64,000 bases of DNA from Shigella phage ESh21. The stretch is taken from the sequence record ON528731. One strand, written 5' to 3'. A program made the translations under genes and the position numbers. Of the stretch, positions 222 to 60,902 are shown one piece after another. How positions within the stretch are numbered: position 1 is the stretch's first letter; the number at the start of each line of letters is the position of its first letter. Below the pieces are notes generated by a model, which saw only the letters and a list, made by a program, of their open reading frames with translations, searched no databases and was not told the origin of the DNA.

Positions 222-231
222 GGTTAATATA

Positions 232-256
232 GAGGCTCCTTCGGGAGCCTTTTTCA
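232..256 (+). terminator. Rho-independent terminator
   Basis: AGGCTCC-TTCG-GGAGCCT hairpin followed by T-run. Confidence 0.7.
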
Positions 257-273
257 TTTCTAGGAGAAGTTAA

Positions 274-1956: not shown

Positions 1957-2751
1957 ATGGGCATTGTAAAAATCATTAAAGGTGATATCTTTGAAGCCTT
2001 TGATAACCAGAAGTTTGATATCATTGGTCACGGATGCAACTGCATGAACTTGATGGGTGCAGGTATTGCAGCAACAATCTCAAAACGCTACCCAAAAGCT
2101 TATGAGACTGACGCTGAAGTTTATGAGACAGTTGGTGGTGAGAACCATAAACCTGTACATCTTATGCTTGGCAATATCTCTGTAGCACGTTTCAAGCAGG
2201 GTCGAATTGCTAACCTATACACTCAGGTTATCACTGGTAAAGATGCACGTTACAATGCCTTAGAAGCAGCTTTGCAGCGTCTTAACAACTACTGCAAAGT
2301 AAACCAGCTTAAGAAGGTTGGTCTTCCAATGATTTGTGCAGGGATTGGTGGTCTGGATATCTTTGCAGTTACTTCAATCATTAACCAGACAATGAAAGAT
2401 GTAGACGTTTACCTTTATGTCTATGAAGAAACAATGCACAGACGACTAACCAATAACATAGTTGGTTGGAACAACTACAGTGAACCTCAACACTTTGATG
2501 GTGTCGCAGTTGTGAAGGATAATCAAGTTACACTACGGGTAAAACGGAAGGGTAAGGTGCATAAAAGTAACCCTCCGGTTGAGAAGTACTCTCTGAGTAA
2601 CGCTCAAGTTACCCACCCGTTACATGACCACTGTTTGAGAGCAGTAACATTTGGTGACAATGCAAGTGTTTACCTTCTTGCACAAGACCATGAAGAAGCT
2701 GATAAGATTATCTCTGATAAACGTTTTAGCTTTGTTGAAGCACGTAACTAA
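1957..2751 (+). CDS. Macro domain protein (ADP-ribose binding / ADP-ribosyl hydrolase-like) with C-terminal extension
   Basis: GDIF...FDIIGHGCNCMNLMGAGIAATI and KVGLPMICAGIGGLD resemble macro-domain motifs (GDIT, VNAAN..GGGV..AI, PxIxTGxxGxP). Confidence 0.65.
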   Translation: MGIVKIIKGDIFEAFDNQKFDIIGHGCNCMNLMGAGIAATISKRYPKAYETDAEVYETVGGENHKPVHLMLGNISVARFKQGRIANLYTQVITGKDARYNALEAALQRLNNYCKVNQLKKVGLPMICAGIGGLDIFAVTSIINQTMKDVDVYLYVYEETMHRRLTNNIVGWNNYSEPQHFDGVAVVKDNQVTLRVKRKGKVHKSNPPVEKYSLSNAQVTHPLHDHCLRAVTFGDNASVYLLAQDHEEADKIISDKRFSFVEARN

Positions 2752-2811
2752 GTAACTTTGTAAAGTATTCACAATAGAGTAAGCCTTTCTTGTTCTTGCA
2801 AACACAAGGTA

Positions 2812-3008
2812 AGGAGGGCTTTTTCATTTCAAAATCGTGCAGATAAAGGTCTATAAAGAAATCTGTAGAGTGAAATCAAAGTCAACTCCAAAGGGAAAAT
2901 TCATTTTCAATTTGTGCAGGTGAACTCCAAAGAGCTTTTTCATTTCAAAATTGTGCAGAGAAAAATCAGGTCGGGCAAGAAAATTCATTTTCAATTTGTG
3001 CAGGTAGC
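2812..3008. repeat. Four tandem copies of a ~40-bp repeat (core TTTCATTTTCAAATTGTGCAG)
   Basis: Copies near 2822, 2901, 2936, 2981 alternating two variants. Confidence 0.7.
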
Positions 3009-3016
3009 CAGATATA

Positions 3017-3057
3017 GCCAGCCAGCCCCACCACCCCCTCTTACTCCCCTTCCTCCC
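3017..3057. repeat. C-rich polypyrimidine tract
   Basis: GCCAGCCAGCCCCACCACCCCCTCTTACTCCCCTTCCTCCC in otherwise AT-rich DNA. Confidence 0.6.
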
Positions 3058-3178
3058 AAAAGTCAAGAGAAAAATTTGTAGCGGATTAAAAAATAATTCT
3101 TGACTAGTTTTCTGTTTAGTGCTATGTGTACGCGCCCGTTTCATTCACAACATGCCAAAAATATTTTTAAAAATTTGC

Positions 3179-3207
3179 TTGACTCTAAAAAACCAGTCTT
3201 ATAGTAT
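3179..3207 (+). promoter_or_regulatory. Sigma70-like promoter for first early cassette
   Basis: TTGACT - 17 bp - TAGTAT. Confidence 0.55.
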
Positions 3208-3257
3208 TTGCATCAACGGGAAGCAATCCCAACAATCCTAAACTGGAGATTCAAAAA

Positions 3258-3464
3258 ATGTTATATCAACGGGAATTAATGATTGTCGATAATAACAAAA
3301 CTAAAAAACGTCGCTTCTTTATGTTAATCTGTGACGTGTGGCAAAGAATATCTGAAAAGGATTATGACAAGTATGTTGATACATCAATCAGGTCGGATTG
3401 TTATTTGACAAATCACACAAGACAGTTTACAAGACATACAGCAGTTTACTACTATGACGTTTAA
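3258..3464 (+). CDS. Hypothetical early protein
   Basis: Conserved leader CCTAAACTGGAGATTCAAAAA immediately upstream of ATG. Confidence 0.5.
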   Translation: MLYQRELMIVDNNKTKKRRFFMLICDVWQRISEKDYDKYVDTSIRSDCYLTNHTRQFTRHTAVYYYDV

Positions 3465-3476
3465 AAGGGCTTGACA

Positions 3477-3638
3477 ATGATTAAAGAAAGCAATGTAATA
3501 CGTTACAAGGATTTAGACGGCTACCCTAAAACGGGAAAAGTTTTCTATCTTTACAAGTCAGTGATGGGTAATGACTGCATAGCCCTAACAAATGGCGACA
3601 AAATAACCATGAAAGATTTTATAAAAATTATTGCATAA
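3477..3638 (+). CDS. Small hypothetical protein (53 aa)
   Basis: ATG 13 nt after upstream stop; below ORF-track cutoff. Confidence 0.3.
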   Translation: MIKESNVIRYKDLDGYPKTGKVFYLYKSVMGNDCIALTNGDKITMKDFIKIIA

Positions 3639-3643
3639 AGTGC

Positions 3644-3696
3644 TTCACATGGGGTTTAAAAGGTAGTATCTTAAGCCCCAGATAAAGAACTTTATC
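3644..3696 (+). promoter_or_regulatory. Promoter-embedded stem-loop cassette plus palindrome GATAAAGAACTTTATC
   Basis: TTCACA -35 in 5' arm, hairpin GGGGTTTA/TAAGCCCC, -10-like TATCTT, then 16-bp palindrome. Confidence 0.5.
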
Positions 3697-3726
3697 ACTA
3701 AACAATCCTAAACTGGAGAATCTAAA

Positions 3727-4110
3727 ATGAAAAAATACTATATGCCAAAGTTTATCAAGAAAGAAAACTTTCGCGATGCTCTGGAAAATTCCATGAATGA
3801 GCAATTCAAAGGCAAAATAATTGTTGTACACGCATACAATTTTAAGTATGATGTAAACGGTAACAAGATAAACCACTACACCGTTACAATGTTAGATGAT
3901 ACACTCTCAGGAGAAAAAGCCATCATCAATGCACTGGCTGCACGTGGTAAAACGTTAATCCGTTGTGATAAACGCCGCTATCAGGGTGGCACTTATGGTT
4001 ATGAGGATGCAATCTATCATCTTGCTAATATGGGTTACAATGTCGAAAAAGCTGGCGTATCTCAAATGATTGGTAGTGATGGGTATGTAACAGATTTCAA
4101 AATTAACTAA
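3727..4110 (+). CDS. Hypothetical early protein
   Basis: Conserved leader upstream. Confidence 0.55.
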   Translation: MKKYYMPKFIKKENFRDALENSMNEQFKGKIIVVHAYNFKYDVNGNKINHYTVTMLDDTLSGEKAIINALAARGKTLIRCDKRRYQGGTYGYEDAIYHLANMGYNVEKAGVSQMIGSDGYVTDFKIN

Positions 4111-4118
4111 TAAAGTGC

Positions 4119-4172
4119 TTTACATGGGGTTTATGAGTTGCTAGTATAAGCCCCAGATAAAGAATTTTATCA
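4119..4172 (+). promoter_or_regulatory. Promoter-embedded stem-loop cassette plus palindrome
   Basis: TTTACA - 17 bp - TAGTAT overlapping hairpin GGGGTTTAT/ATAAGCCCC; palindrome GATAAAGAATTTTATC. Confidence 0.55.
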
Positions 4173-4197
4173 CTAACCTAAACTGGAGATTCTAAAA

Positions 4198-4710
4198 ATG
4201 AAATCAGTCGAAAGCACCTTTGAAGTTCAAAAAGAAAAATTTACTATCATCTTTGAAGCAATGAATGTTTATGAGCCTTCCCATTGTGTGGATAACTGGC
4301 AATTCACTGATGAGCATAAAGGAGGAGTTACAATCAAAGTTAAAAACTCAGAACGTAACGGCTACAAATATGCAATTCCTATGCACTATGCGCTTTCACA
4401 GCTTGCCAGTGATTACGCAAAACAGGGAAGGGATAACCCATCATTAGCCGCTTACAAGAGCTTACAAGATGAACTAGAAAGGGATTTAGGGGCTAATAGC
4501 TACATTCTATACGCCTCAGTAGTTGACGCTGAAGGCAACACGGTTTTAAATAGTTTTTCCCTTGCGTATGGTTTTGATTGGTGCTATCTTGACGGGGAAG
4601 ATTTAGATTCACGCTTAAAAGAGGAAGTAAGCAATTCAGGTGCTGAAGAGGAAGTTTTAGAGCGCTTGGAAGATTTAAAAGATAGTGTGATGAATATCTT
4701 TAATATCTAA
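4198..4710 (+). CDS. Hypothetical early protein
   Basis: Conserved leader upstream. Confidence 0.55.
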   Translation: MKSVESTFEVQKEKFTIIFEAMNVYEPSHCVDNWQFTDEHKGGVTIKVKNSERNGYKYAIPMHYALSQLASDYAKQGRDNPSLAAYKSLQDELERDLGANSYILYASVVDAEGNTVLNSFSLAYGFDWCYLDGEDLDSRLKEEVSNSGAEEEVLERLEDLKDSVMNIFNI

Positions 4711-4716
4711 AAGTAC

Positions 4717-4769
4717 TTTACATGGGGGTTATCAAGTTGCTAAGATAGCCCCAGATAAAGAGCTTTACC
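4717..4769 (+). promoter_or_regulatory. Promoter-embedded stem-loop cassette plus imperfect palindrome
   Basis: TTTACA, hairpin, GATAAAGAGCTTTACC. Confidence 0.45.
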
Positions 4770-4795
4770 AACAATCCTAAACTGGAGAATCTAAA

Positions 4796-5086
4796 ATGAA
4801 AATTCCTGCTAATGTACGCTCAAAGTTAAGCCAATTACTACAAAACATTTCTTTTGTAGAATCTCATAGACGTTCACAGGATGTTATAGAGTGGTATCAT
4901 GGGAAGATTAACAAGAAAGAAGTTTTAATCTGTATTTGGAACTTTCAAAAAGAACATGGCAAGCCATTGCTTCAGGTTGACATTTATGATAATACTAGCA
5001 AATCAGCAGTAAAATCAAAAGCTGATATGATTGATTCATATGAAATTAGTCACACTGGTAGATTATCACACGTTGGGAAGGTTTAA
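4796..5086 (+). CDS. Hypothetical early protein
   Basis: Conserved leader upstream. Confidence 0.5.
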   Translation: MKIPANVRSKLSQLLQNISFVESHRRSQDVIEWYHGKINKKEVLICIWNFQKEHGKPLLQVDIYDNTSKSAVKSKADMIDSYEISHTGRLSHVGKV

Positions 5087-5087
5087 A

Positions 5088-5414
5088 ATGTTACTTTCTG
5101 GTATCGCAATTCTGATTTCAATTGTGGCGCTATATAAAGCTTATCAAGCCTCAGACTATGCAGATAAGGCTATCACAAGGAAAGTTAAAATAAACCTTGT
5201 AAGTAGCTTCTTAGAGCGTTTAAGCGTGGAACAATTACAACGTTTAGAGATGGGATTCAGGTTTAAGGCAGACACTTATCAAATCAGTGATGTTTTATCC
5301 GGTAACTTTGAGCTTGTTAATGATTACAATGCGTTACTAAATGCTATTCAAGCTACTGATTTAAAAGAATATTATCCGGTTATTGCACAAGAAATTAATA
5401 AACGCAAAAAATAG
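5088..5414 (+). CDS. Hypothetical membrane protein (N-terminal TM helix)
   Basis: Start moved to ATG 5088 with GGAAGG SD; the longer ORF from 5031 overlaps the upstream gene. Confidence 0.45.
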   Translation: MLLSGIAILISIVALYKAYQASDYADKAITRKVKINLVSSFLERLSVEQLQRLEMGFRFKADTYQISDVLSGNFELVNDYNALLNAIQATDLKEYYPVIAQEINKRKK

Positions 5415-5497
5415 CTTGCAAAGGCAAATCAAAACAAGTAAAGTACTCATCAACGGGGTAAGCAAGCCCCTAACAATCCTAAACTGGAGAATCTAAG

Positions 5498-5770
5498 ATG
5501 TATACAACTAATAATGGCAGAACTTTAAATGTAACTTTAAAGCACTATATAGACGGTGTATTAAACTTTGAAGACTTGCAAGCAGAGCAGCACTTGTTAG
5601 CTTGGCAAGTAGCAGGATTACAAAAAACCGCCACCGGATATGGGAAGAAAATCCCTACATCTTGGAAAGTTCGATACCTTGGAAAGTTACGCAGAATTTA
5701 TCAAGATGTTTACAGTAATAGTGGTGTAAGTTACATTATTGTTAGCGGTAAAAAGTTACATCTTGCTTAA
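5498..5770 (+). CDS. Hypothetical early protein
   Basis: TTGCAA-17-TAAAGT promoter and conserved leader upstream. Confidence 0.5.
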   Translation: MYTTNNGRTLNVTLKHYIDGVLNFEDLQAEQHLLAWQVAGLQKTATGYGKKIPTSWKVRYLGKLRRIYQDVYSNSGVSYIIVSGKKLHLA

Positions 5771-5778
5771 TAAAGTGC

Positions 5779-5831
5779 TTTACATGGGGTTTATAAGTCG
5801 ATAGTATAAGCCCCAGATAAAGAACTTTATC
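5779..5831 (+). promoter_or_regulatory. Promoter-embedded stem-loop cassette plus palindrome
   Basis: TTTACA - 17 bp - TAGTAT with hairpin; GATAAAGAACTTTATC. Confidence 0.55.
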
Positions 5832-5857
5832 ACTAACCTAAACTGGAGATTCAAAAA

Positions 5858-6259
5858 ATGGCTACGAACAAAGATATAGCAGTACTGAAAGCACGTTTGA
5901 CCGTTAACCGTATTAATGCTATCACATCAACCGCACCAGATGAGGTTTTACATAACATTATCGGTAAAATTCAGGGTGTAATTTTAGACGTTGAAAACAT
6001 CAGAGATTCACTTGCAAATGTTGCACAGGGTGTTACACTTGACGGCGCACAATATGAAATGGCTGATATGCTTTCAAAGTCAAAAGTTCTTAATAAAGAA
6101 TTAGACTTGAAAATGTTTCGATTTGCTGTTAAAGTGTGGCTATCTGTTGAGTTTGATGCTAACTTTGCAATTGCTGATTTCTTCGCAACGTGGTTACAAC
6201 GTAATTTAGAAAAGCAAGATTTTCAAGATATCTGCGATACAATTTACGCAGAACTTTAA
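5858..6259 (+). CDS. Hypothetical early protein
   Basis: Conserved leader upstream. Confidence 0.55.
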   Translation: MATNKDIAVLKARLTVNRINAITSTAPDEVLHNIIGKIQGVILDVENIRDSLANVAQGVTLDGAQYEMADMLSKSKVLNKELDLKMFRFAVKVWLSVEFDANFAIADFFATWLQRNLEKQDFQDICDTIYAEL

Positions 6260-6343
6260 AAAACGTTTGACACTGATTTTTAGATATATTAAAGTACTAT
6301 CAGACGGGCAAGCAAGCCCACTTCCTAAACTGGAGATTCAAAA

Positions 6344-6901
6344 ATGAAATGCTTTCACGGAACTACTCAAGAAAACTTTGTGAACCTGCTGAGTGGTGGA
6401 GAAAAACCTTCAGGGGCTTGGAATTGCTCAGACAGTGACGGGTGTTTTTATGTTTACCCTGTTAGTAAGTTCTATGATGTAGAGGATATGAACGCAGAAC
6501 AAATCACTGAAGAGGGTATTAGAAACACTCTGGATAGCGCAAGTATCACAGCGGCTTTCCAGATGAAATCACAAAAAATCGTTATCTTGGAACTCGATAT
6601 TCCAGAGGATGAATTACAAGATGACTGGAGCTGTGAGAATATGAAAGACGTTGCAAGCTTTACAGAACACTTTGATAAATCTTGGATTAAAAAGATTTAC
6701 ACAACTGATTTTAATGCTATGTATGCACCGTTTTTTGTACCTAACTTGAACAATAGAAATCTTGGCTATGTACCTGATGAATTACATAACATTGCTGTAA
6801 TGGTTCAACGTAGCGATGAGATGAATAATGTTTATTGTGACATTTTCGAAAATATGCAATCTAACATCACAGAAAGCAATATAAACGACTTTACAGCATA
6901 A
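6344..6901 (+). CDS. Hypothetical early protein
   Basis: TTGACA-17-TAAAGT promoter and conserved leader upstream. Confidence 0.55.
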   Translation: MKCFHGTTQENFVNLLSGGEKPSGAWNCSDSDGCFYVYPVSKFYDVEDMNAEQITEEGIRNTLDSASITAAFQMKSQKIVILELDIPEDELQDDWSCENMKDVASFTEHFDKSWIKKIYTTDFNAMYAPFFVPNLNNRNLGYVPDELHNIAVMVQRSDEMNNVYCDIFENMQSNITESNINDFTA

Positions 6902-6964
6902 ACCATAGAATCATACCAGATAACCGTAAAAGCCCCACACAGGGGCTTACAGGAGCTTTAAAAG

Positions 6965-7201
6965 ATGCTTACAACAATCTATCTCATGCTTGCCGTTTGC
7001 TCTGGTGCAAATAATTGTCATTATGGCATTATGGAATCCTTTGAAGGCACTAAACAAAATGCGGAAGAGGCTTGTAATATTGCTAGACAAGATTACCCCA
7101 AATCATCTAAAATGGGTTGCTACGTCTTACAAGGTGAAGACGAAAACACAGAATACTACGAAAATATTAATGAAGATGAATTTTTAGAGATTTACAAATA
7201 A
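6965..7201 (+). CDS. Small Cys-containing protein with N-terminal hydrophobic segment (possibly secreted)
   Basis: ORF in track; N-terminal hydrophobic stretch. Confidence 0.45.
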   Translation: MLTTIYLMLAVCSGANNCHYGIMESFEGTKQNAEEACNIARQDYPKSSKMGCYVLQGEDENTEYYENINEDEFLEIYK

Positions 7202-7206
7202 AGTAC

Positions 7207-7259
7207 TTTACATGGGGCTTAAAAGGTAGTATCTTAAGCCCCAGATAAAGAGCTTTACC
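7207..7259 (+). promoter_or_regulatory. Promoter-embedded stem-loop cassette plus imperfect palindrome
   Basis: TTTACA, hairpin GGGGCTTA/TAAGCCCC, GATAAAGAGCTTTACC. Confidence 0.45.
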
Positions 7260-7286
7260 AACAATCCTAAACTGGAGAATCTAAAA

Positions 7287-7628
7287 ATGGCATACGTAAC
7301 AGTAATTACTGACAAAGAAAATTCATCTTGGTCTACTCAGGTTAGCGATAAAATGTCCCCTATGCAGTGTCTCAAGTACTTTGAGCAGTGGAACCGTGGG
7401 GAAGATGTAAGCCCTTTTCAGGTGATGCAGGTTGTACACGTTGACAATGACGGCAACAAAACAACACTTAACACTGAATACTACGCAAGCCGTTTTGAAA
7501 CTAGAGCAGAGGCAATGAAACAATTACGTGAAAAGGGTTACAGTCACATAGCTGGATTAATCTGGAATGACTTACTAAAACAGCAGTGTATGACCTATGT
7601 CAAGCCTGAAAAAATCTTTATAAGCTAA
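7287..7628 (+). CDS. Hypothetical early protein
   Basis: Conserved leader upstream. Confidence 0.55.
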   Translation: MAYVTVITDKENSSWSTQVSDKMSPMQCLKYFEQWNRGEDVSPFQVMQVVHVDNDGNKTTLNTEYYASRFETRAEAMKQLREKGYSHIAGLIWNDLLKQQCMTYVKPEKIFIS

Positions 7629-7813
7629 TCAGTAACTTACAAAATACTTTGAAAAAACTGTTGACTTTACCCCTTGACAATAGTACATTTGTTCGAGGGG
7701 GTTTATCTAAAAGGATTCACTTGAAAGATTCTTTATAGATAAGCCTTGCAATTGCTTCAAAGATTCTCTATAGTTCTCTCAGTTGGTTAACTTCCTAAAC
7801 TGGAGATTCTAAA

Positions 7814-7933
7814 ATGATTATTTTGTATATGATGGTATTCTCAGTAGTGACCCCTTTCATACTCTTAATAGCCAGCGAAATAGATGATAAAATCTTTGAT
7901 AAAAAGCTTGCAAAGGCAAATCAAAACAAGTAA
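7814..7933 (+). CDS. Small hydrophobic peptide (39 aa)
   Basis: Conserved leader directly upstream of ATG; below ORF-track cutoff. Confidence 0.3.
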   Translation: MIILYMMVFSVVTPFILLIASEIDDKIFDKKLAKANQNK

Positions 7934-7997
7934 AGTATCTATCAAGGGGAAGGAATAAGGCTTCCCCCACTAAATAATCCTAAACTGGAGATTCAAA

Positions 7998-8525
7998 ATG
8001 AATAAGTTCACAGCAATCAATACTATCCGCTCAAAAGATGTAATGAAAAAACCTGTAAAAGACACTTTCGAATTTACTCTTAAAGATAAGTTGTTTGCAG
8101 TTATCACGAAAGGGGAAGATAAAAAATATTACATTCATCGCCCAAATCAGCAAATGCTAACCACTAACAACTTTATGAAGGCTGTGGCAATGATTCTGCC
8201 TGATTTTATGGCTATCGTTGCAGAGATTCACGAAATGGCTATAAAAGCCACTAAAAACGAGCTAAACCGCTATAAAATGGCTTATGAGCGTTCTATCAAG
8301 TCTCATAATCTTTTTATTGCAATCCACCATACGGGGATGTATGCTATGGGGACGGGTAACCAACAATACCCGCTCTATGATGTAGAAAATATCTATACAG
8401 GTGATTATCCAACAACTAAATTTAAGATTACGCTGGGGGAGGCATTAACTAGGGGGATTCGACTTTACGAACAATCTCTAAAAAACTTAGAAAATTCACT
8501 TGACGAAACGTTAGCGAATCTTTAA
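7998..8525 (+). CDS. Hypothetical early protein
   Basis: Conserved leader upstream. Confidence 0.55.
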   Translation: MNKFTAINTIRSKDVMKKPVKDTFEFTLKDKLFAVITKGEDKKYYIHRPNQQMLTTNNFMKAVAMILPDFMAIVAEIHEMAIKATKNELNRYKMAYERSIKSHNLFIAIHHTGMYAMGTGNQQYPLYDVENIYTGDYPTTKFKITLGEALTRGIRLYEQSLKNLENSLDETLANL

Positions 8526-8589
8526 AGTATCTATCAAGGGGAAGGAATCACTTCCCCACTAAAAATTCCTAAACTGGAGACTTAAAAGA

Positions 8590-8766
8590 TGAATTTTGAA
8601 CAGCGTATGATTGCAAAATTTGGTGCTAAACGTTGGGAAGAAATGAAAAAAGAGCATGAAGAAAAGAAAAATGAAGAAATGGTAGTCATCACTGGTACAG
8701 ACTTGTTAAATCATTCAGTTACTAATTACATCATTTCCGGCAATTCTTACAAGAAAGTTATTTGAT
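8590..8766 (+). CDS. Small hypothetical protein (58 aa)
   Basis: Conserved leader upstream; below ORF-track cutoff. Confidence 0.3.
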
Positions 8767-8837
8767 TAGTCTTGACAAGGGGCATAAAAGCCCCTACTTT
8801 AAGACTCTAAAACAATCCTAAACTGGAGATTCAAAAA

Positions 8838-9089
8838 ATGGCTACTATCCGCGCAACTGTAAACACTTTTGGTTTTAACGTGTTAGATGTTAAGTTTGAT
8901 ATGGTAGGTACTGGTGATGCTTTTGGAATGGTTGAAATGTGCTTAAAGGCAACTATTCAGGACTATAAACCAACTGAAAACTTCTGGAAAGAAGTCAAGC
9001 AGGAAGTCTTGAAAGATGGTGTGACGTCTTACTATTGGGGTGATTCTCTTATCACGCTTTACCATCAAAAATTTGGTTATAATGACTAA
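8838..9089 (+). CDS. Hypothetical early protein
   Basis: Conserved leader upstream. Confidence 0.5.
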   Translation: MATIRATVNTFGFNVLDVKFDMVGTGDAFGMVEMCLKATIQDYKPTENFWKEVKQEVLKDGVTSYYWGDSLITLYHQKFGYND

Positions 9090-9129
9090 CAAGACGCCGC
9101 AACGGGGCAAATAGCCCCAGACACCTTTC

Positions 9130-9153
9130 AAGCCCCTTAAATGGGGCTTTTTA
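9130..9153 (+). terminator. Rho-independent terminator ending the early plus-strand array
   Basis: AGCCCC-TTAAAT-GGGGCT followed by TTTTT. Confidence 0.7.
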
Positions 9154-9540
9154 ACGTCTATACAATCTCTTTCTAGACATTTAGAGTAATAACTCTATAG
9201 CTTACTCTATAACCTCTTATCAAATCAACTTAAATATAAGCCCATAACCCGAAAGGGAAGGGCAACCATTAAAACGCTCTATAACGCTCTATAACAGCCT
9301 TATCAACCTAACTTAAGCAATCATATTAACCCACTCTAAAAATCCCTTTATAGAGCTTCCTAGAGCCTTAAAAGAATCTTATAAGGGTGTAAGCTTTATC
9401 ATCTCGTTAGTCTCTTGTGAATATCTAAACAGGGCTGCAAAGTCACTTAAAAGTTACGTAAAAAGAGCTATAAAGTATCGTAAACACTAGCCCCCTTAAC
9501 ATTTCTTTAACAAAATCTTAACAATCCCTACATAGTTATG

Positions 9541-10026
9541 CTTGTTAGCAACTTGTTAGCACCTTGTTAAATCTCTGTTAAGACTACGTTACAACCTTGT
9601 TAGGCTCTTTGAAGTCCCTATATAAGCCCCTGTAAAGGGCTATAAAGAGCTATACAGGTAATTGGGCTATAGATACTAGTAAGAACCTTAGAAGAGGCTA
9701 CATAGAGCTATACAGGGCTTTTAAGAGGGCTGTTTAGAGAATCACTGAGAGGGATAGGGAACTATAAGAGAAGAGAAGTTGTGTTTGTAAACAATCACTG
9801 TGACCATGTTAATAAATGGTTAAACATGTTAAGAACTTAATAGACACTTGTTAATTATCTTAACAAAATAACTTTTAAATTTAACATGTTAGGGACTTGT
9901 TAGTAATTTGTTAAACCCTTGTAAGAACTGTTAAACTCTTGTTACATCCTTGTTAGAACTGTTAAGGGATTGTTAAGAACTATGGAGACTTGTTAGAGAC
10001 TTGTTAGAGTTGTAAAGAAATTGTTA
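9541..10026. repeat. Array of more than 20 YTTGTTAR repeats, the 9887-10026 run phased at about 10.5 bp
   Basis: TGTTA starts at 9887, 9898, 9909, 9920, 9929, 9940, 9951, 9960, 9971, 9991, 10002, 10011, 10022. Confidence 0.7.
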
Positions 10027-10279
10027 ATGATATTTTAAGATTTTGCAAAGGGGATGTTACAGGGCTGTTAAGGGCTACCAAGCAGATATACACCCTTTGT
10101 AGATATTTTTCAGATACTCCCAAGAACCTAAAAAGTGACCTACCTAGTCTATTTTATAAAAATTTTATAGAACTGAATAACTATCTATACACTATCTTCT
10201 ATAAAACAGGTAATAACAGGCTTATAAGATATCTTGTTAGTAACGTGTTAGACCTTGTAGGATAAGCCTTTACAGGGAA

Positions 10280-10560
10280 TACCTGTTTAGTGCTATATAA
10301 CAGTCTATATAGAGGCTTAGTAATCCCTAGTGAACCATCTATAGAGGGTATCATCCTTAACATAGAGATTAAGATGGATATAGGGGCTTCTAAGGGGCTA
10401 TGGAGAAGCTAGGAAGGTGATTGTATAGGTGTGGAAGAGGGCTTGTTAGAGAGCTTTATAGAGGGCTATTTAGAAGGTGCTATATAGTTTCACTAGATAG
10501 GGACTAAGAGGCTATATAGATACTATATAATACTATATAGAGAGTATGCTTAGATAGGTT
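10280..10560. repeat. Cluster of palindromic GCTATATAG-type repeats
   Basis: Copies near 10283, 10297, 10349, 10455, 10479, 10511, 10522, 10532; related GCTATAAAG copies at 9461-9720. Confidence 0.6.
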
Positions 10561-10663
10561 GTTGAAGAGGGTATTGATATTTTATCACATATCATGGTGA
10601 CCAAAGATGAACGGAGTGAATCCAAATTTTATAAGAACTATAAATTTCGTAAATTTTACTCAA

Positions 10664-10711
10664 TAAAAAGCCCCTATGAGATAGATTCTATCGAATCCAT
10701 ATTAAGGGGCT
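10664..10711 (-). terminator. Rho-independent terminator for the minus-strand operon
   Basis: Minus-strand hairpin AGCCCCT...AGGGGCT followed by T-run. Confidence 0.55.
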
Positions 10712-10720
10712 ATGTAGTTC

Positions 10721-11392
10721 TTAGCAAAGGTTCTCTATAACAGCCTGAATAGCTGGAATAGTCGTGTGAAAGAAGTGAGTGTCTCCGTTATGTGATTCTC
10801 GTATCTGTAACATGATAGCGTGACCCTTGATAGGGTAGCATTGAATGTGATAACGATTCCCGTTAAACACTGAACCAAACCCTGTACAGAAACTTTCCAA
10901 GTCAGCTTTAGAAAGAAACTCTTCTTTCCCTGTGATTTTTATACAGACACCTCTATTAACTCGTGAAGGGTTTATATCTTCTGCAAAGAGCATCTGTTGA
11001 CCACCTAAAGAGGTCATAGAGATTTCTTTACGGTTCTGCTGCTTAACATACATCTCAAGCTTCTTCAAAGTCTCTTCATAGAACGGATAATATTTATTCA
11101 CAAAGATACCTTCAAGTGGCTCTTTACCTGAGTCTTCTCGTTCCATCTTAAGTCGATTAACAAGTAATTCTAAAGACCACTTCTCACTTTCATCAAGATA
11201 TGTATTGATATCATCTAGACTCAGTACCAGATACTTTCTTTCAAGTTCAAACTTTTTCATCTCTATCAAATCCTTAAAACATTTCTTAGTAATTGCTTCC
11301 CATTCTTCGGAGTTCTTCCGCTTCCTCTTCAGATGGGGAACCATATCTGTTAAGTTCTTCCAACTCTTCTTCAGTAGGTGTCCCATAATCAC
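10721..11392 (-). CDS. Hypothetical protein
   Basis: ORF in track. Confidence 0.5.
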   Translation of the reverse strand: MIMGHLLKKSWKNLTDMVPHLKRKRKNSEEWEAITKKCFKDLIEMKKFELERKYLVLSLDDINTYLDESEKWSLELLVNRLKMEREDSGKEPLEGIFVNKYYPFYEETLKKLEMYVKQQNRKEISMTSLGGQQMLFAEDINPSRVNRGVCIKITGKEEFLSKADLESFCTGFGSVFNGNRYHIQCYPIKGHAIMLQIRESHNGDTHFFHTTIPAIQAVIENLC

Positions 11393-26648: not shown

Positions 26649-28250
26649 ATGGACTTAAATGTTATTAAGCAGAAGCGAGTGGAAGATGTAAGGAAAGTCC
26701 TAGCAGGTGAGTTGGGGCTTTCTGAAGAAGTAAAAGATATTATCAAATCCTTTGGTAAAGACCCCTCTAAATTCCTTCCAACTCAAATTCTGACTTTATT
26801 AAGATATACCCCAGACCAAGTAAGACTCATCTTTAAATTGATGACTGACAAGAACTATGTAGCTCCACAGCCTGGCTCTCAAGAGGTATTCTTGAATACC
26901 AATGCTGACTTGGTGTTATATGGTGGTGCTGCTGGTGCTGGTAAGACTGCTGCCCTTTTAATGGACTCTTTGAGATTCATTGATGACCCTAACTATAACG
27001 CTGTATATTTCCGTCGAAATACTACACAGTTACAAGGTGGTTTATGGCCAGCAGCTAAAAAGCTATTTGGTAAGTTTGGTGGAATCCCACACGAACAGAA
27101 AATGACTATTACGTTCCCTTCAGGAGCGACTATTAAGTTTACTTATTTGGAACTTGAAAAACACTCAGAAGGTCACCAAGGTATCGAATACTCAGCTATT
27201 TACTTCGACGAAGGTACACACTTCTCGGCTTCACAGATTTCATATCTTCAGACACGTTTGCGTTCTGGTGCTGAAGGTGACTCATATATGAAGATTTCCA
27301 TGAACCCAGATAGAGACCACTTTATTTACGATTGGGTAGAACCATTCCTAGATGAAGAAGGTTATCCAGACCCGTCTAAATGCGGTAGGATTCGTTGGTA
27401 TGTTATGAGTGATGGTGTAATGGTTTCTGATTGGGACAAGAATAAGATTCTTGAAATGTTCCCTCTAGAGATTCCTCAAACATATACCTTTATTTCTGGT
27501 ACGATTGATGACAACCCAATTCTTGATTTCTTAGAACCTAAGTATCGTGGTAAATTGGAAAATAACACACCAGTTAACGTTGCTCGTCTTCGTTTTGGTA
27601 ACTGGAAAGCTCGTGCAGAAGGTTCAAACTATTGGCAAAGACAATGGTGTGAGATTGTTGATAGTGTTCCAGCAGACGTATTTGATGTTCGTGCTTGGGA
27701 CTTAGCAGCAACATTACCCTCAGAAGTTAACCCTAATCCTGACTGGACAGCAGGTGTGAAAATGGGTAAATCTAAAAAAGATGGTTGCTATTATGTAATT
27801 AACGTAGTAAGATTTAGAGATAGACCTTCTGGAGTTGAAACACAAATTAATATGACTGCTGAAGGTGATGGTAAACGTACTGGTATTTTTATCCCACAAG
27901 ACCCAGGCGCTGCTGGTAAATCCTACGCAACATCTCTTATTAGAAAACTTGCTGAGAAAGGCTATAGAGCAAGAGCTAAACCTACCAATAAAGATAAAGT
28001 TACCCGTTTTGCGGGTTTCTCTGCTGCTTCAGAAGCTGGTCTTGTTAAAATTGTTAGAGGCTCTTGGAATGAAGCTTATTTCCAAGAACTAGAAGGTTTT
28101 TGTGGTGATGGTCGTACTAAGGATGACCAAGTGGATGCTACCAGTGATGCTTTCAACAGTCTTAATGAAGTTAAACTATTCAAGCCACCTTCAATGGGTA
28201 CTCATACAGATATTGTAAGAAGTAATCCATACGAAGGGCTGAGATTCTAA
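26649..28250 (+). CDS. terL: Terminase large subunit
   Basis: Walker A-like GGAAGAGKT; ~530 aa; followed by portal; start set to ATG 26649 with GAGG SD. Confidence 0.8.
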   Translation: MDLNVIKQKRVEDVRKVLAGELGLSEEVKDIIKSFGKDPSKFLPTQILTLLRYTPDQVRLIFKLMTDKNYVAPQPGSQEVFLNTNADLVLYGGAAGAGKTAALLMDSLRFIDDPNYNAVYFRRNTTQLQGGLWPAAKKLFGKFGGIPHEQKMTITFPSGATIKFTYLELEKHSEGHQGIEYSAIYFDEGTHFSASQISYLQTRLRSGAEGDSYMKISMNPDRDHFIYDWVEPFLDEEGYPDPSKCGRIRWYVMSDGVMVSDWDKNKILEMFPLEIPQTYTFISGTIDDNPILDFLEPKYRGKLENNTPVNVARLRFGNWKARAEGSNYWQRQWCEIVDSVPADVFDVRAWDLAATLPSEVNPNPDWTAGVKMGKSKKDGCYYVINVVRFRDRPSGVETQINMTAEGDGKRTGIFIPQDPGAAGKSYATSLIRKLAEKGYRARAKPTNKDKVTRFAGFSAASEAGLVKIVRGSWNEAYFQELEGFCGDGRTKDDQVDATSDAFNSLNEVKLFKPPSMGTHTDIVRSNPYEGLRF

Positions 28251-52967: not shown

Positions 52968-53317
52968 TTAATATCCTCATTTTTAAAGGTGAACGTGGTG
53001 TAGTTAGTCCCATCAACATTTAGCCAGATAGCCTTAACAGATACACCATCAATATTGCCAACCAGTTCTTTGATGAACTTGTTACGAACATCATGAGCAC
53101 AAGTTGTCTCAAGCTTAATGTTAGAGATAGCGGAGCCAATTGTCATATAACCAGCAATACGCCTCTTCTCAGTATGCTTGATTCTTCCTTCTTGATACAT
53201 CTGCTTCAGGACTCCCAAGAGTTCTTCACCAAATGACTTCTCAGCACTCGTCGGTTTCCCGTAGAAACCAAGTGCAAAGTTGTCGTTGAAAATTGCATTC
53301 TTACGTTTCATAATCAA
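52952..53317 (-). CDS. Hypothetical protein
   Basis: ORF in track. Confidence 0.5.
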   Translation of the reverse strand: MIMKRKNAIFNDNFALGFYGKPTSAEKSFGEELLGVLKQMYQEGRIKHTEKRRIAGYMTIGSAISNIKLETTCAHDVRNKFIKELVGNIDGVSVKAIWLNVDGTNYTTFTFKNEDIKCLFP

Positions 53318-53613
53318 TCTGCCTTACTTAAGTTGAAGTTTAAACCAAGTTTATCACAAACACTAATCATGTAGTCAAGAGAAACTTTACCGCTACCGTT
53401 TAAGATGTTTGAAACTCTTGCTTGAGAAATCTCACAAATCTTTGCTACCTGAACTTGTGATAGATTGTTTCTTTTCATGTGAATGTGTAGTTTCTCAGAG
53501 ATATAGAACTTCATCTCATCCACATCCATTCCAGCTATGTATGCTTCCATTTCAGACTCTCTATCAGCTTCCCAATCATCTTGGGGTGCATAAGGGTCGA
53601 AGACTTTATTCAT
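53314..53613 (-). CDS. Helix-turn-helix DNA-binding protein (XRE-like)
   Basis: VQVAKICEISQARVSNILNG resembles an HTH motif. Confidence 0.5.
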   Translation of the reverse strand: MNKVFDPYAPQDDWEADRESEMEAYIAGMDVDEMKFYISEKLHIHMKRNNLSQVQVAKICEISQARVSNILNGSGKVSLDYMISVCDKLGLNFNLSKAD

Positions 53614-59415: not shown

Positions 59416-59674
59416 TTTAACTCCCTCTCAAATCACACTGCTTAATACCCTACTCCAATTTTTATGAAAAAGCAAGTTGACAAAGCACTTGACAAGGTGT
59501 TAATCTTTGCGGAGTGGGTTCTATCTTAATAGACTCTCTTTACAGGTTAACTATACAGATTCTTTAAAACCCTTAAAAGATTTTTAATAGTCTTTTAAAA
59601 GCTTTAAAGTTATACGTATAGAATACGTAAAGATAAGAGATTAAAATCTTTATAGAAACTTAGTAGAGGCAATT

Positions 59675-60097
59675 ATGCAGAGGATGTACATTCACCCAGA
59701 TATACAAAACTTCATTGATGCTTTAGAGAAACTTGAAAGGCTTGACTTAGAAGCACAGAAGGAATATGCTTTCCATCATCGACGTATGGTTGATGTGCAG
59801 CATGAGATAGAGTTGTCAGAAGGGTACGACGATAAGATGAAGTGTTCAGTCTTTGAGCACATGAAAGAGATATCTTCAGAAAGACGTAAAGCAAAAGATA
59901 CTATCTTTTTGATAGATACCTTAAAAAATAAGTTGCAAAATGGAACGGATTTAGATAGTCTATCACAACTGCTTCAGGATGCAGAGAATACATGGGACAG
60001 GAATTACTTCCCAAGGTCTGAAAAAGGACTTGACTTCTCTTCACAAGAAAGCTTAAGATTATCACGACTAACTATTAACAAAATAAGAGAGAATTAA
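59675..60097 (+). CDS. Hypothetical protein
   Basis: ORF in track. Confidence 0.5.
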   Translation: MQRMYIHPDIQNFIDALEKLERLDLEAQKEYAFHHRRMVDVQHEIELSEGYDDKMKCSVFEHMKEISSERRKAKDTIFLIDTLKNKLQNGTDLDSLSQLLQDAENTWDRNYFPRSEKGLDFSSQESLRLSRLTINKIREN

Positions 60098-60098
60098 T

Positions 60099-60902
60099 AT
60101 GACTACTGTAAATGAAATGCTGTCCTCAAAAGGTATTGATAGCAACTTTATGCTCAATACAATTGAAAGTCTTGCTATTGTAATGCGTAGCAACACATTT
60201 AGTTCCAAGGTAATGCCTGAATCATATCAGGTTAATGGAGATATCTCTGATGAGTCATCGTTTCGCTCGCAAGTTAAACTCCTTCTAAGTGACCGTAAAC
60301 TAGCTCTGGCATCTGTAGCGGTTGGTGTAGATGCCTTTGCTGGTTATATCTTTGACAACATGCAGACTGGTGACTTCAAAGTTCTTTCTGAGGAAGAGAA
60401 AGAAGGAATCCTTAACTTCTCTGAAGATGCTACCTTTGAACTGATTATCAACTCAATTGCAAGTGTTATGGCTGTTCTTGAGAAGCGTGTTCAAGATAAA
60501 CTTCCACGCTATGAACAACTTGATTGGGGATTCGTAGATATCTTTGAGCGAGTGCTGGAGATGGTGGCCCTTACTAGTGAGCAACTTAAAGAGGTTGTTG
60601 CGCGTGAAGCTGAACATGGACTTGATGAGATTCAGGTTAAACTTACCGCATTGGTCCCATCAATCATCACTGTAATGGGTATCCACGCTCTGTTTGAAGT
60701 CGCTCAACTGATTGATGCACCTATCGAGTTTGTTGAACAGATTGCTGGTGATGTAAGTGGTGAAGCACTACGCGAAGTCATTATGCAGACTGGTGCAGCA
60801 GTACTCCAAGAGAAAATTGCTATCCACTTCGGTGATGAGTTTGTTGAGACTCTTCAGGCTATCTCTGAAAAAGAAAAACTGGACTCTAACCAGATTCACT
60901 AA
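60099..60902 (+). CDS. Hypothetical protein
   Basis: ORF in track. Confidence 0.5.
   Translation: MTTVNEMLSSKGIDSNFMLNTIESLAIVMRSNTFSSKVMPESYQVNGDISDESSFRSQVKLLLSDRKLALASVAVGVDAFAGYIFDNMQTGDFKVLSEEEKEGILNFSEDATFELIINSIASVMAVLEKRVQDKLPRYEQLDWGFVDIFERVLEMVALTSEQLKEVVAREAEHGLDEIQVKLTALVPSIITVMGIHALFEVAQLIDAPIEFVEQIAGDVSGEALREVIMQTGAAVLQEKIAIHFGDEFVETLQAISEKEKLDSNQIH

Follow-up and report, generated by a model that had tools for sequence, protein, structure and literature searches.

The subject of this analysis is a cluster of four short repeats in the genome of Shigella phage ESh21, of which a stretch of 64,000 nucleotides (sequence record ON528731, one strand, 5' to 3', in the following called the window) was analysed. 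Lying between the gene of a macro-domain protein and the first early promoters, the four repeats probably form an array of sites on double-stranded DNA for a phage-specific protein, a reading that we prefer since the sites are unique, conserved, held at fixed spacing and subject to a co-ordinated change of motif between genera, and since there is no signal of coding or of RNA structure across them. What the array would be for is a more doubtful matter, and it is only tentatively that we favor a replication origin of the iteron type, a reading which we nevertheless rank above that of an array controlling or insulating the neighboring promoters.

A repeat search of the window returns a family of 27 nucleotides at 2818-2844, 2895-2921, 2934-2960 and 2979-3005, and the degenerate 20-mer core TTCATTTYMAAWTYGTGCAG has exactly four matches in the 64 kb, starting at 2823, 2900, 2939 and 2984 and all of them on the plus strand, where shuffled sequences hold 0.15 matches on average and none of 100 shuffles holds four. 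An earlier note on this DNA had reported four copies of a repeat here, and all four are indeed found and are unique in the genome, the full genome of the phage being taken as the window plus the remainder from phage ESh22: a profile hidden Markov model of the unit finds no further convincing copy in those remaining 25 kb, nor in Felix O1, whose complete genome was scanned, one isolated weak site discussed below being the exception. The same note described a tandem repeat of about 40 bp, and while the copies are there, an even tandem array is not, since the four copies, which together span about 190 bp of non-coding DNA, follow each other at start-to-start distances of 77, 39 and 45 bp. Tandem Repeats Finder accordingly reports no array at this place, the units being too unequal, and the array is better described as a cluster of dispersed repeats. 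The core given in the note, TTTCATTTTCAAATTGTGCAG, has no literal occurrence either and turns out to be a blend of two alternating subtypes that are 67% alike. Subtype A, GCTTTTTCATTTCAAAAT[CT]GTGCAGA, comprises copies 1 and 3, which begin GCTTTTTC, and subtype B, GAAAATTCATTTTCAATTTGTGCAGGT, comprises copies 2 and 4, which begin GAAAATTC. Repeat 1 (2816..2845, plus strand, subtype A) has its core TTCATTTCAAAATCGTGCAG at 2823-2842 and an nhmmer E value of 5e-8, repeat 2 (2893..2922, plus, subtype B) its core TTCATTTTCAATTTGTGCAG at 2900-2919 with E = 2e-7, repeat 3 (2932..2961, plus, subtype A) its core at 2939-2958 with E = 9e-8, and repeat 4 (2977..3006, plus, subtype B), with its core at 2984-3003, is the same as repeat 2 across 27 nucleotides. 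The long spacer between repeats 1 and 2 (2846..2892, plus) contains two elements of the form CTnTnnAG 12 bp apart, at 2851 and 2863, with ACTCCAAAGGG at its end. Possibly it represents a fifth unit that has decayed, as phages of Erwinia have a normal unit of 37 bp at this place and as it resembles the first copy in a Hafnia phage, a likeness that was judged by eye. The CTnTnnAG elements are enriched in the terminal region of the genome and show no enrichment around the array. An array of clustered regularly interspaced short palindromic repeats (CRISPR) is ruled out by its supposed spacers, which range from 12 to 50 nucleotides and are conserved between phages.

The composition of a single site can be read from 52 distinct units, in which the blocks TCATTT and GTGC were preset, being part of the pattern with which the units were gathered, but both blocks are also invariant in an independent alignment. 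The seven positions between the two blocks occur in 26 different forms, and the five to six positions that precede TCATTT are either a run of T or a run of the AnTm kind, never with a TpA step. Two fixed blocks about one helical turn apart, a free center and an A-tract that may lie on either strand are what is usually seen where a protein reads duplex DNA. The interchange of A-tract and T-tract in particular points to a constraint on the shape of the double helix, since it would have no meaning in RNA, in which A5 cannot stand in for U5.

By its sequence the window belongs to a Mooglevirus of the subfamily Ounavirinae, that is to the Felix O1-like myoviruses: over a 2-kb stretch around the array it is 99% identical to ESh22 and 76-86% identical to Mooglevirus and Suspvirus phages of Citrobacter, Shigella and Escherichia. 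The array sits in a gap of 506 bp (2752-3257) that holds no real gene, and this gap as a whole is matched in 292 phage records, 237 of which align with 80% or more of it at identities of 72-81%, Felix O1 and wV8 among them, and in the Erwinia phages (Kolesnikvirus) BLAST detects just window 2900-3002, i.e. the repeats. For the comparison between phages we used an alignment of eight genomes together with 33 distinct versions of the region from GenBank and IMG/VR. Nearly all genomes compared carry four copies, and the conservation in related phages on which the earlier note had proposed to check its repeat is borne out in number, order and spacing across four genera, the spacing being 73-77, 39-41 and 43-45 bp in Felixounavirus, Mooglevirus and Suspvirus. 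The Kolesnikvirus phages, unlike the other relatives, have a true tandem array with distances of 37, 37 and 39 bp, in the Hafnia phage three copies are good and a further one is degenerate, and a distant IMG/VR contig of 88 kb (L058) has five. Three copies are found in the Felixounavirus contigs L022 and L094, where copies 2 and 3 have undergone unequal fusion, and although the note had named a freely varying copy number as the finding that would speak against its proposal and such three-copy genomes do exist, four copies are the overwhelming rule. A pattern scan of IMG/VR places all true arrays on Ounavirinae-like contigs of 51-90 kb, its other matches being repeats unrelated to the motif.

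Within 26 distinct sequences of the Felixounavirus, Mooglevirus and Suspvirus type, 65% of the core columns of repeat 1, 60% of those of repeat 3 and 65% of those of repeat 4 are invariant, compared to 19% where the macro-domain gene ends and 19-28% for the spacers of the same sequences. The array and an invariant block of 49 bp downstream of it, described below, are the best-conserved non-coding DNA in the stretches examined. The 3' end of the unit is furthermore uniform within each genome and differs by genus, reading GTGCAG in Felixounavirus, Mooglevirus and Suspvirus, GTGCAT in Kolesnikvirus and L058 and GTGCTT in the Hafnia phage, and a co-ordinated change of this kind is what would be expected if the sites co-evolve with a phage protein. 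A side observation is that the 147-kb record GU169904.1, named Staphylococcus phage SA1, contains this Felix O1-like gap at 128689-129190 (79% identity) and, at 89837-90133, the helix-turn-helix (HTH) gene described below; it would seem to be a chimera or to include contaminating DNA from an Ounavirinae genome.

Neither a coding function nor a structured RNA is indicated for the region. The open reading frame (ORF) of 97 codons on the minus strand (2851..3144), which is annotated in some GenBank records and which the earlier note had suspected of being spurious, is not a gene: it is open in just three of 26 distinct versions, the window included, with a fourth keeping 85 codons, and the frame is interrupted in most relatives, whose segment lengths of 262-295 nucleotides differ by amounts that are not multiples of three. 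A plus-strand ORF of 55 amino acids was discarded along with it, both being unconserved. Short ORFs have been annotated over the array in ON528732 (URY12774-12776), NC_027293 (CPT_Moogle115), AF320576 (ORF31-34) and EU877232 (gene 13), and these vary from record to record and are unconserved. A search of Rfam at E <= 10 returns only noise for the array, RNAalifold and single-sequence folding find no structure in it on either strand, and its plus-strand RNA is less structured than 197 of 200 shuffles (z = +1.8).

Following the array there is a C-rich tract (3017..3057, plus) composed of 26 C, 7 T, 5 A and 3 G, and the description of this tract as almost entirely C and T was overstated, since 80% of it is pyrimidine, but it is nonetheless the most C-rich 41-mer of the window, the next best having 21 C and shuffles at most 21. 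Its complement on the minus strand (3057->3026) is the sole canonical G-quadruplex motif in the 64 kb, and such a motif is found in 15 of 33 distinct relatives. The tract is conserved in composition in part of the subfamily but not in its individual positions (12% invariant columns), is shorter in Kolesnikvirus and absent in L058, and of 19 Felixounavirus-type contigs 11 have in its place a sequence that lacks the richness in C (11-15 C in the best 41 nucleotides) and bears no significant similarity to it. The replacement is however of the same length in ten of these 11, with 61 bp from repeat 4 to the invariant block just as in the C-rich version, the eleventh (L087) having 51 bp. In most Mooglevirus and Suspvirus-type contigs the corresponding distance is 57 bp (55 bp in L085, phiSUSP1), and it is 61 bp in all Felixounavirus-type contigs bar one. 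Since unrelated replacements keep an identical length, we conclude that the distance from array to block is under constraint and the sequence of the tract is not, and that the tract is no obligatory part of the element. In the segment homologous to window 3004-3060 the replacement amounts to an alternative allele, carried by contigs L012, L017, L018, L035, L041, L049, L065, L072, L084, L087 and L088; it contains a micro-ORF of 27 amino acids, MSPFLTRLPHLKRKVNRKICSGLKNNS, that starts with ATG and runs into the invariant block, the frame in the C-rich version being open with no start codon. The idea that the two versions are inversions of one another was abandoned, as their alignment is not convincingly better than that of shuffles.

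The invariant AT-rich block (3058..3106, no strand assigned) is 49 bp long, runs from AAAAGTCAAGAG to AATAATTCTTGACT and contains imperfect inverted arms, AGTCAAGAG and TTCTTGACT, placed 28 bp apart. With 82% invariant columns among 26 distinct relatives it is the most conserved segment of the region, above any nearby gene. Its end provides the -35 hexamer of a weak promoter-like site, P1 (3100..3128, plus; TTGACT, 17 bp, TATGTG with a TG extension), which scores 6.9 by position weight matrix, ranking about 790 of 640,000 configurations, and of which the -35 hexamer and the A-rich DNA upstream are conserved and the -10 hexamer is not. The only strong sigma-70 promoter predicted in the gap is P2 (3179..3207, plus; TTGACT, 17 bp, TAGTAT, preceded by an AT-rich stretch), which scores 12.3, is in the top 33 of the window and belongs to the first early gene. 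The array ends 97 bp before the -35 hexamer of P1 and 175 bp before that of P2, and the location between the macro-domain gene and the first early promoters that the earlier note gave is thus upheld by both the domain match of that gene and the sigma-70 predictions at 3100 and 3179. Candidate promoters within the array and a leftward one at 3066 were rejected, since their matrix scores of 6-8 are unremarkable.

If these elements are taken together, the four repeats would be docking sites on double-stranded DNA for one sequence-specific protein that is most probably encoded by the phage. Each site would cover about 25 bp and consist of a rigid A- or T-tract (T5-6 or A3-5T1-3), TCATTT, seven free base pairs and GTGC(AG), so as to offer two base-specific contacts about one helical turn apart in addition to an element with a narrow minor groove. 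Four proteins bound in the same orientation might then form a nucleoprotein complex immediately past the terminator of the operon for replication, rII and lysis, at a fixed 57-61 bp from the invariant AT-rich block and the tandem early promoters, and the bound protein, aided by transcription from the adjacent promoters, might open the AT-rich block and let the T7-like primase-helicase and the polymerase of the phage load there. We infer in other words that a protein binds the repeats, that the phage encodes it and that its purpose is initiation of replication. The origin is ranked first since an element occurring once per genome fits a job done once per genome better than it fits the control of one promoter among many, and as in an origin of this type the repeats are clustered, direct, in one orientation and unique in the genome. 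The AT-rich segments starting at 3085 and 3157 are furthermore among the least stable 1% of windows of 40-60 bp, and the adjacent tandem promoters and the precedent of iteron origins in other replicons also speak for this reading.

A number of observations do however weigh against an origin at this place. The spacing of 37-45 bp corresponds to 3.5-4.3 helical turns and is out of helical phase, and neither a DnaA box (TTWTNCACA) nor the consensus of IHF (WATCAANNNNTTR) occurs in 2750-3260. No initiator-like or other DNA-binding domain is recognised in the ten neighboring proteins, the first gene after the array differs between genera, and one unit is dispensable, given that three-copy contigs occur. 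The least stable DNA of the genome is found elsewhere, at 9.8-10.6 kb in the terminal-repeat region and in the divergent region at 59.5 kb, and the latter, lying next to the polymerase gene, is equally plausible as an origin. A search of the literature for work on origins, transcriptomes or promoters in the subfamily returned nothing relevant and no experiments on the region. Of the two possibilities in the earlier note, iterons or a regulatory binding array, it is therefore the behavior as protein sites that stands, and the iteron origin as such finds no support in the out-of-phase spacing, the neighboring genes or the DnaA and IHF searches. As regards the divergent region, window 59500-60100 is an AT-rich gap between the DNA polymerase gene on the minus strand and a rightward replication operon, and it holds a near-palindrome of 48 bp (59562-59609) and an enrichment of CTnTnnAG elements and is an alternative origin candidate. 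A genome-wide knockout screen of the Felixounavirus Bas63 (PhageMaP) reports no intergenic insertions.

The weak single site mentioned above lies outside the window, just past the terminator of rIIB, and reads CCTTTTTTATTTGAAAAATGTGCAGGATGGTGTATAAT (contig L010 2135-2160, corresponding to about 27134-27159 in ESh22). In the form TTATTT-N7-GTGCAG it overlaps the -35 hexamer and spacer of a promoter with a perfect -10 TATAAT, and it is kept, with a different 7-bp center, in Felix O1 (L011 3519-3560) and at every Mooglevirus locus examined; Erwinia phage M7 lacks the arrangement. Either the same protein may bind here singly at a promoter, or the site may reveal the source of the units, a derivation that is conceivable because terminators in these phages usually have the T-rich half of subtype A as their tail. 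The possibility of a promoter class defined by a GTGCAG box was dropped, since there is only this one further instance in the genome, downstream of rIIB. A candidate for the binding protein is a regulator of 99 amino acids with an HTH_3 (Cro/C1-type) domain, encoded at 53314-53613 on the minus strand in the leftward polymerase and ligase operon, which is the only annotated DNA-binding regulator found. Its recognition helix, ISQARVSNI, does not differ between Felix O1 and this phage although overall identity is 64%, and the protein occurs in 258 records, which belong to Felixounavirus, Mooglevirus and Suspvirus, the genera with GTGCAG-type repeats. It is however absent from the roughly 55 kb of Erwinia phage M7 examined, though M7 keeps the array, and this again counts against the proposed scheme.

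The gene that ends upstream of the array encodes the macro-domain protein, also annotated as a phosphatase (1957..2751, plus; Pfam Macro, E = 5.4e-7; PHROG 335), and is the last gene of a long rightward operon that includes rIIA, rIIB and the lysis genes. By synteny it is the constant upstream neighbor of the array in HP1, Moogle, wV8, Felix O1, Erwinia phage M7 and Hafnia phage Zyzzx. It is followed by an intrinsic terminator (2777..2830, plus; main stem 2781-2821), the RNA of which folds at -20.4 kcal/mol (z = -5.3), a stability matched by none of 200 shuffles, and a rho-independent terminator is annotated here in wV8 and ASO1A as well. The tail of this terminator, CTTTTTCATTTC, doubles as the 5' half, the T-run, of repeat 1. 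Downstream of the array there are about 15 small genes with no assigned function (3258-9089), most of them with a repeated promoter module of their own. The leader and first small early gene occupy 3208..3464 on the plus strand, the gene itself lying at 3258-3464 (68 amino acids, PHROG 5293) behind a conserved ribosome binding site region, CCTAAACTGGAGA, and a direct repeat of 16 nucleotides, ATCAACGGGAAGCAAT and ATCAACGGGAATTAAT, is found at 3212-3227 and 3265-3280, i.e. at the start of the leader and in the first codons of this gene. Since HP1 has an annotated terminal repeat whose counterpart is window 9490-10079, the array is predicted, with the end taken from that annotation, to form the inner edge of a terminal block of early genes about 6.5 kb from the right end of the genome. 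The early-gene modules themselves, each about 100 bp, are found at window 3600-3735, 4085-4205, 4690-4805, 5755-5865 and 7185-7295 and consist of CTTTACA, a hairpin GGGGTTTAA...TTAAGCCCC around the -10 hexamer TAGTAT, then AGATAAAGAGCTTTA, the conserved leader AACAATCCTAAACTGGAGA and a small gene, and they match the 57-bp repeats reported for Felix O1. Window 9100-10750, which includes the HP1-type terminal repeat, has no ORF of at least 50 amino acids between 9131 and 10199 and contains the least stable DNA of the window as well as dozens of short repeats every 10-12 bp on both strands (CTTGTTAG, CTGTTAAG and CTATAAAG, of the form CTnTnnAG), which have the look of a lattice to which a packaging protein, or one that binds the ends, would attach.

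The strongest competitor of the origin, although we consider it rather unlikely, is that the array controls RNA polymerase at the boundary between the two transcription units, either as a roadblock that backs up the terminator and keeps middle and late transcription of the upstream operon out of the early block and the genome end, or as an upstream switch acting on P1 and P2. Such a function would agree with the array beginning inside the terminator tail and ending 97 bp before the -35 hexamer of P1, with the distance from array to promoter block being fixed even where the intervening sequence has been replaced, with the extra site at the promoter after the rIIB terminator, which suggests that the binder can also act at a promoter, and with the existence of a phage-encoded HTH_3 regulator whose recognition helix is the same as in Felix O1. 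A general shut-off of early transcription is nevertheless contradicted by the at least five other early promoter modules that have no such sites, and the sites are direct repeats and not palindromes, situated 100-280 bp away from the promoters. The HTH regulator is moreover missing from the roughly 55 kb examined of Erwinia phage M7, which retains the array, and in M7 the promoter-like sequence is about 200 bp off and in another context, the Hafnia phage and L058 likewise differing downstream.

Still less likely is that the region acts at the level of RNA as a back-up terminator, in which the C-rich tract would be a Rho utilization (rut) site that halts read-through before the early promoters and the repeats would have no role in RNA. 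The tract with its 26 C and 3 G in 41 nucleotides is part of a C-rich, G-poor, unstructured and untranslated stretch, the C-minus-G excess of 22 over 78 nucleotides is the third highest on the plus strand of the window, the RNA of the array is less structured than shuffles as stated above, and conservation of composition rather than of sequence is what rut sites lead one to expect. The string CCCCCTCTTAC we take to resemble the rutA/boxA stretch of lambda tR1. However, the tract has been lost in 11 of the 19 Felixounavirus-type contigs, is shorter in Kolesnikvirus and is absent in L058, and a rut site leaves the repeats, their orientation, their spacing and their co-ordinated change unexplained.

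That the array could instead be a checkpoint of genome entry, comparable to the injection stop signal of phage T5, where a bound host or virion protein pauses entry until early proteins have been made, is quite improbable, even though its position is suggestive. The array is about 6.5 kb (about 7-8% of the genome) from the right end predicted via the HP1 annotation, and between the two there are only small early genes with their own promoters, transcribed toward the end; the T5 signal is a repeat-rich untranslated region located at 7.9% from the entering end (10.1101/866236). A two-step entry has however not been reported for Felix O1-like phages, and DnaA boxes, the conserved feature proposed for T5, are missing here. 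No more credible is the notion that the repeats are evolutionary debris, i.e. decayed duplicates of a module made up of a terminator tail and a promoter that are functionless now. The 5' half of subtype A, CTTTTTYATTTS, does equal the usual terminator tail, as seen at window 231-262, at rIIB and in a terminator of M7, and the junction of terminator and promoter at rIIB resembles repeat 1 over about 26 nucleotides, but neutral DNA would not be expected to retain throughout four genera a set of four copies in fixed order and at precise spacing, nor to show 60-65% invariance where neighboring coding DNA shows 19%, nor to change its 3' end in all copies together.

Least probable of all is a decoy RNA, in which the transcribed repeats would mimic the RNA antitoxin of a toxin-antitoxin system of type III or sponge up another RNA-binding protein, for although the unit of 37-45 nucleotides lies in the size range of the repeats of type III antitoxins (34-36 nucleotides for the ToxI family; PMC5086642), although ToxI-bearing plasmids are common in E. 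coli and Salmonella, the ToxI query sequence being confirmed on pECA1039 and many plasmids of these hosts, and although the strings AAATTCA and GTGCAG[C/G]TAG are common to array and ToxI, 16 of 500 shuffles attain the ToxI alignment score of 28 and many other windows of the genome surpass it, BLAST with the array finds no plasmid antitoxin locus and Rfam no match, the units are unequal in length and spacer sequence, the terminator is upstream of the array and not downstream, there is no credible promoter on either strand, and the interchange of A-tract and T-tract makes no sense in RNA. A ToxI mimic was accordingly rejected, its alignment to the array not being significant. A pattern scan of 185,579 bacterial genomes has only unrelated repeats among the matches listed.

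The array has apparently not been described as an element before. The paper on the Felix O1 genome lists twelve direct repeats of at least 24 bp, of which those spelled out lie elsewhere and none matches the array, and it states that the temporal control of transcription is unknown (PMC3185647). The wV8 record annotates a terminator, a doubtful ORF and other repeats in the gap, but not the array. An element present once per genome has in this way escaped annotation, with several GenBank records placing spurious ORFs there, in a group of phages, the Felix O1-like Ounavirinae, that are classical typing phages of Salmonella and are widely used in biocontrol and therapy. The array provides a concrete and testable handle for work on these phages, and for phage engineering it marks a region that should be left intact or deliberately targeted. 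Should it after all serve as an entry checkpoint, two-step DNA transfer would extend beyond the T5 group to one of the oldest and most widely used families of typing and therapy phages of Salmonella and E. coli.

As a kind, the array is nonetheless familiar, since clustered arrays of protein sites are found in the control regions of other phages, and its likeness to such systems can be compared for each of the functions considered. The pseudo-ToxI of phage PhiTE mimics the repeated RNA antitoxin of a type III toxin-antitoxin defence of the host, and like ToxI and pseudo-ToxI the array consists of direct repeats with a unit of about 36-45 nucleotides in a non-coding stretch of a lytic myovirus; unlike them it has unequal units, misplaced promoter and terminator, a signature of selection on duplex DNA and no significant similarity in sequence. 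The injection stop signal of T5 is, like the array, rich in repeats and untranslated, and both border a terminal block of small early genes on its inner side, about 8% of the genome from the end, but the T5 signal contains DnaA boxes, palindromes and inverted repeats, whereas here there are four direct repeats and no DnaA box, the only inverted repeats of the region being AT-rich ones near the promoters. Rut sites such as that of lambda tR1 are C-rich, G-poor, unstructured, untranslated and downstream of an operon, as is the C-rich tract, and differ from it in that many close relatives of this phage have a replacement that is not C-rich. In phage phi29 the small protein p4 binds sites between early and late promoters and builds a higher-order complex that switches transcription, and with this system the array shares four sites in one intergenic control region and their T- and A-tracts, but the p4 sites are inverted repeats directly at the promoters and those described here are asymmetric direct repeats 100-280 bp upstream, and no p4-like gene was identified. 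Origins of the iteron type, finally, are known from phage lambda (ori), from the plasmids RK2 (oriV), P1, F and pSC101 and from Bacillus phage SPP1 (oriL), and classical iterons recur about every 22 bp, all on the same face of the helix. The array departs from them in its period of 37-77 bp, in the lack of a Rep- or O-type initiator among the ten neighbors and of DnaA and IHF sites, but it has in common with them that four to five direct repeats of about 20-25 bp share one orientation, have no counterpart elsewhere in the genome and adjoin AT-rich DNA and promoters, and that the sequence of the repeat is specific to the lineage.

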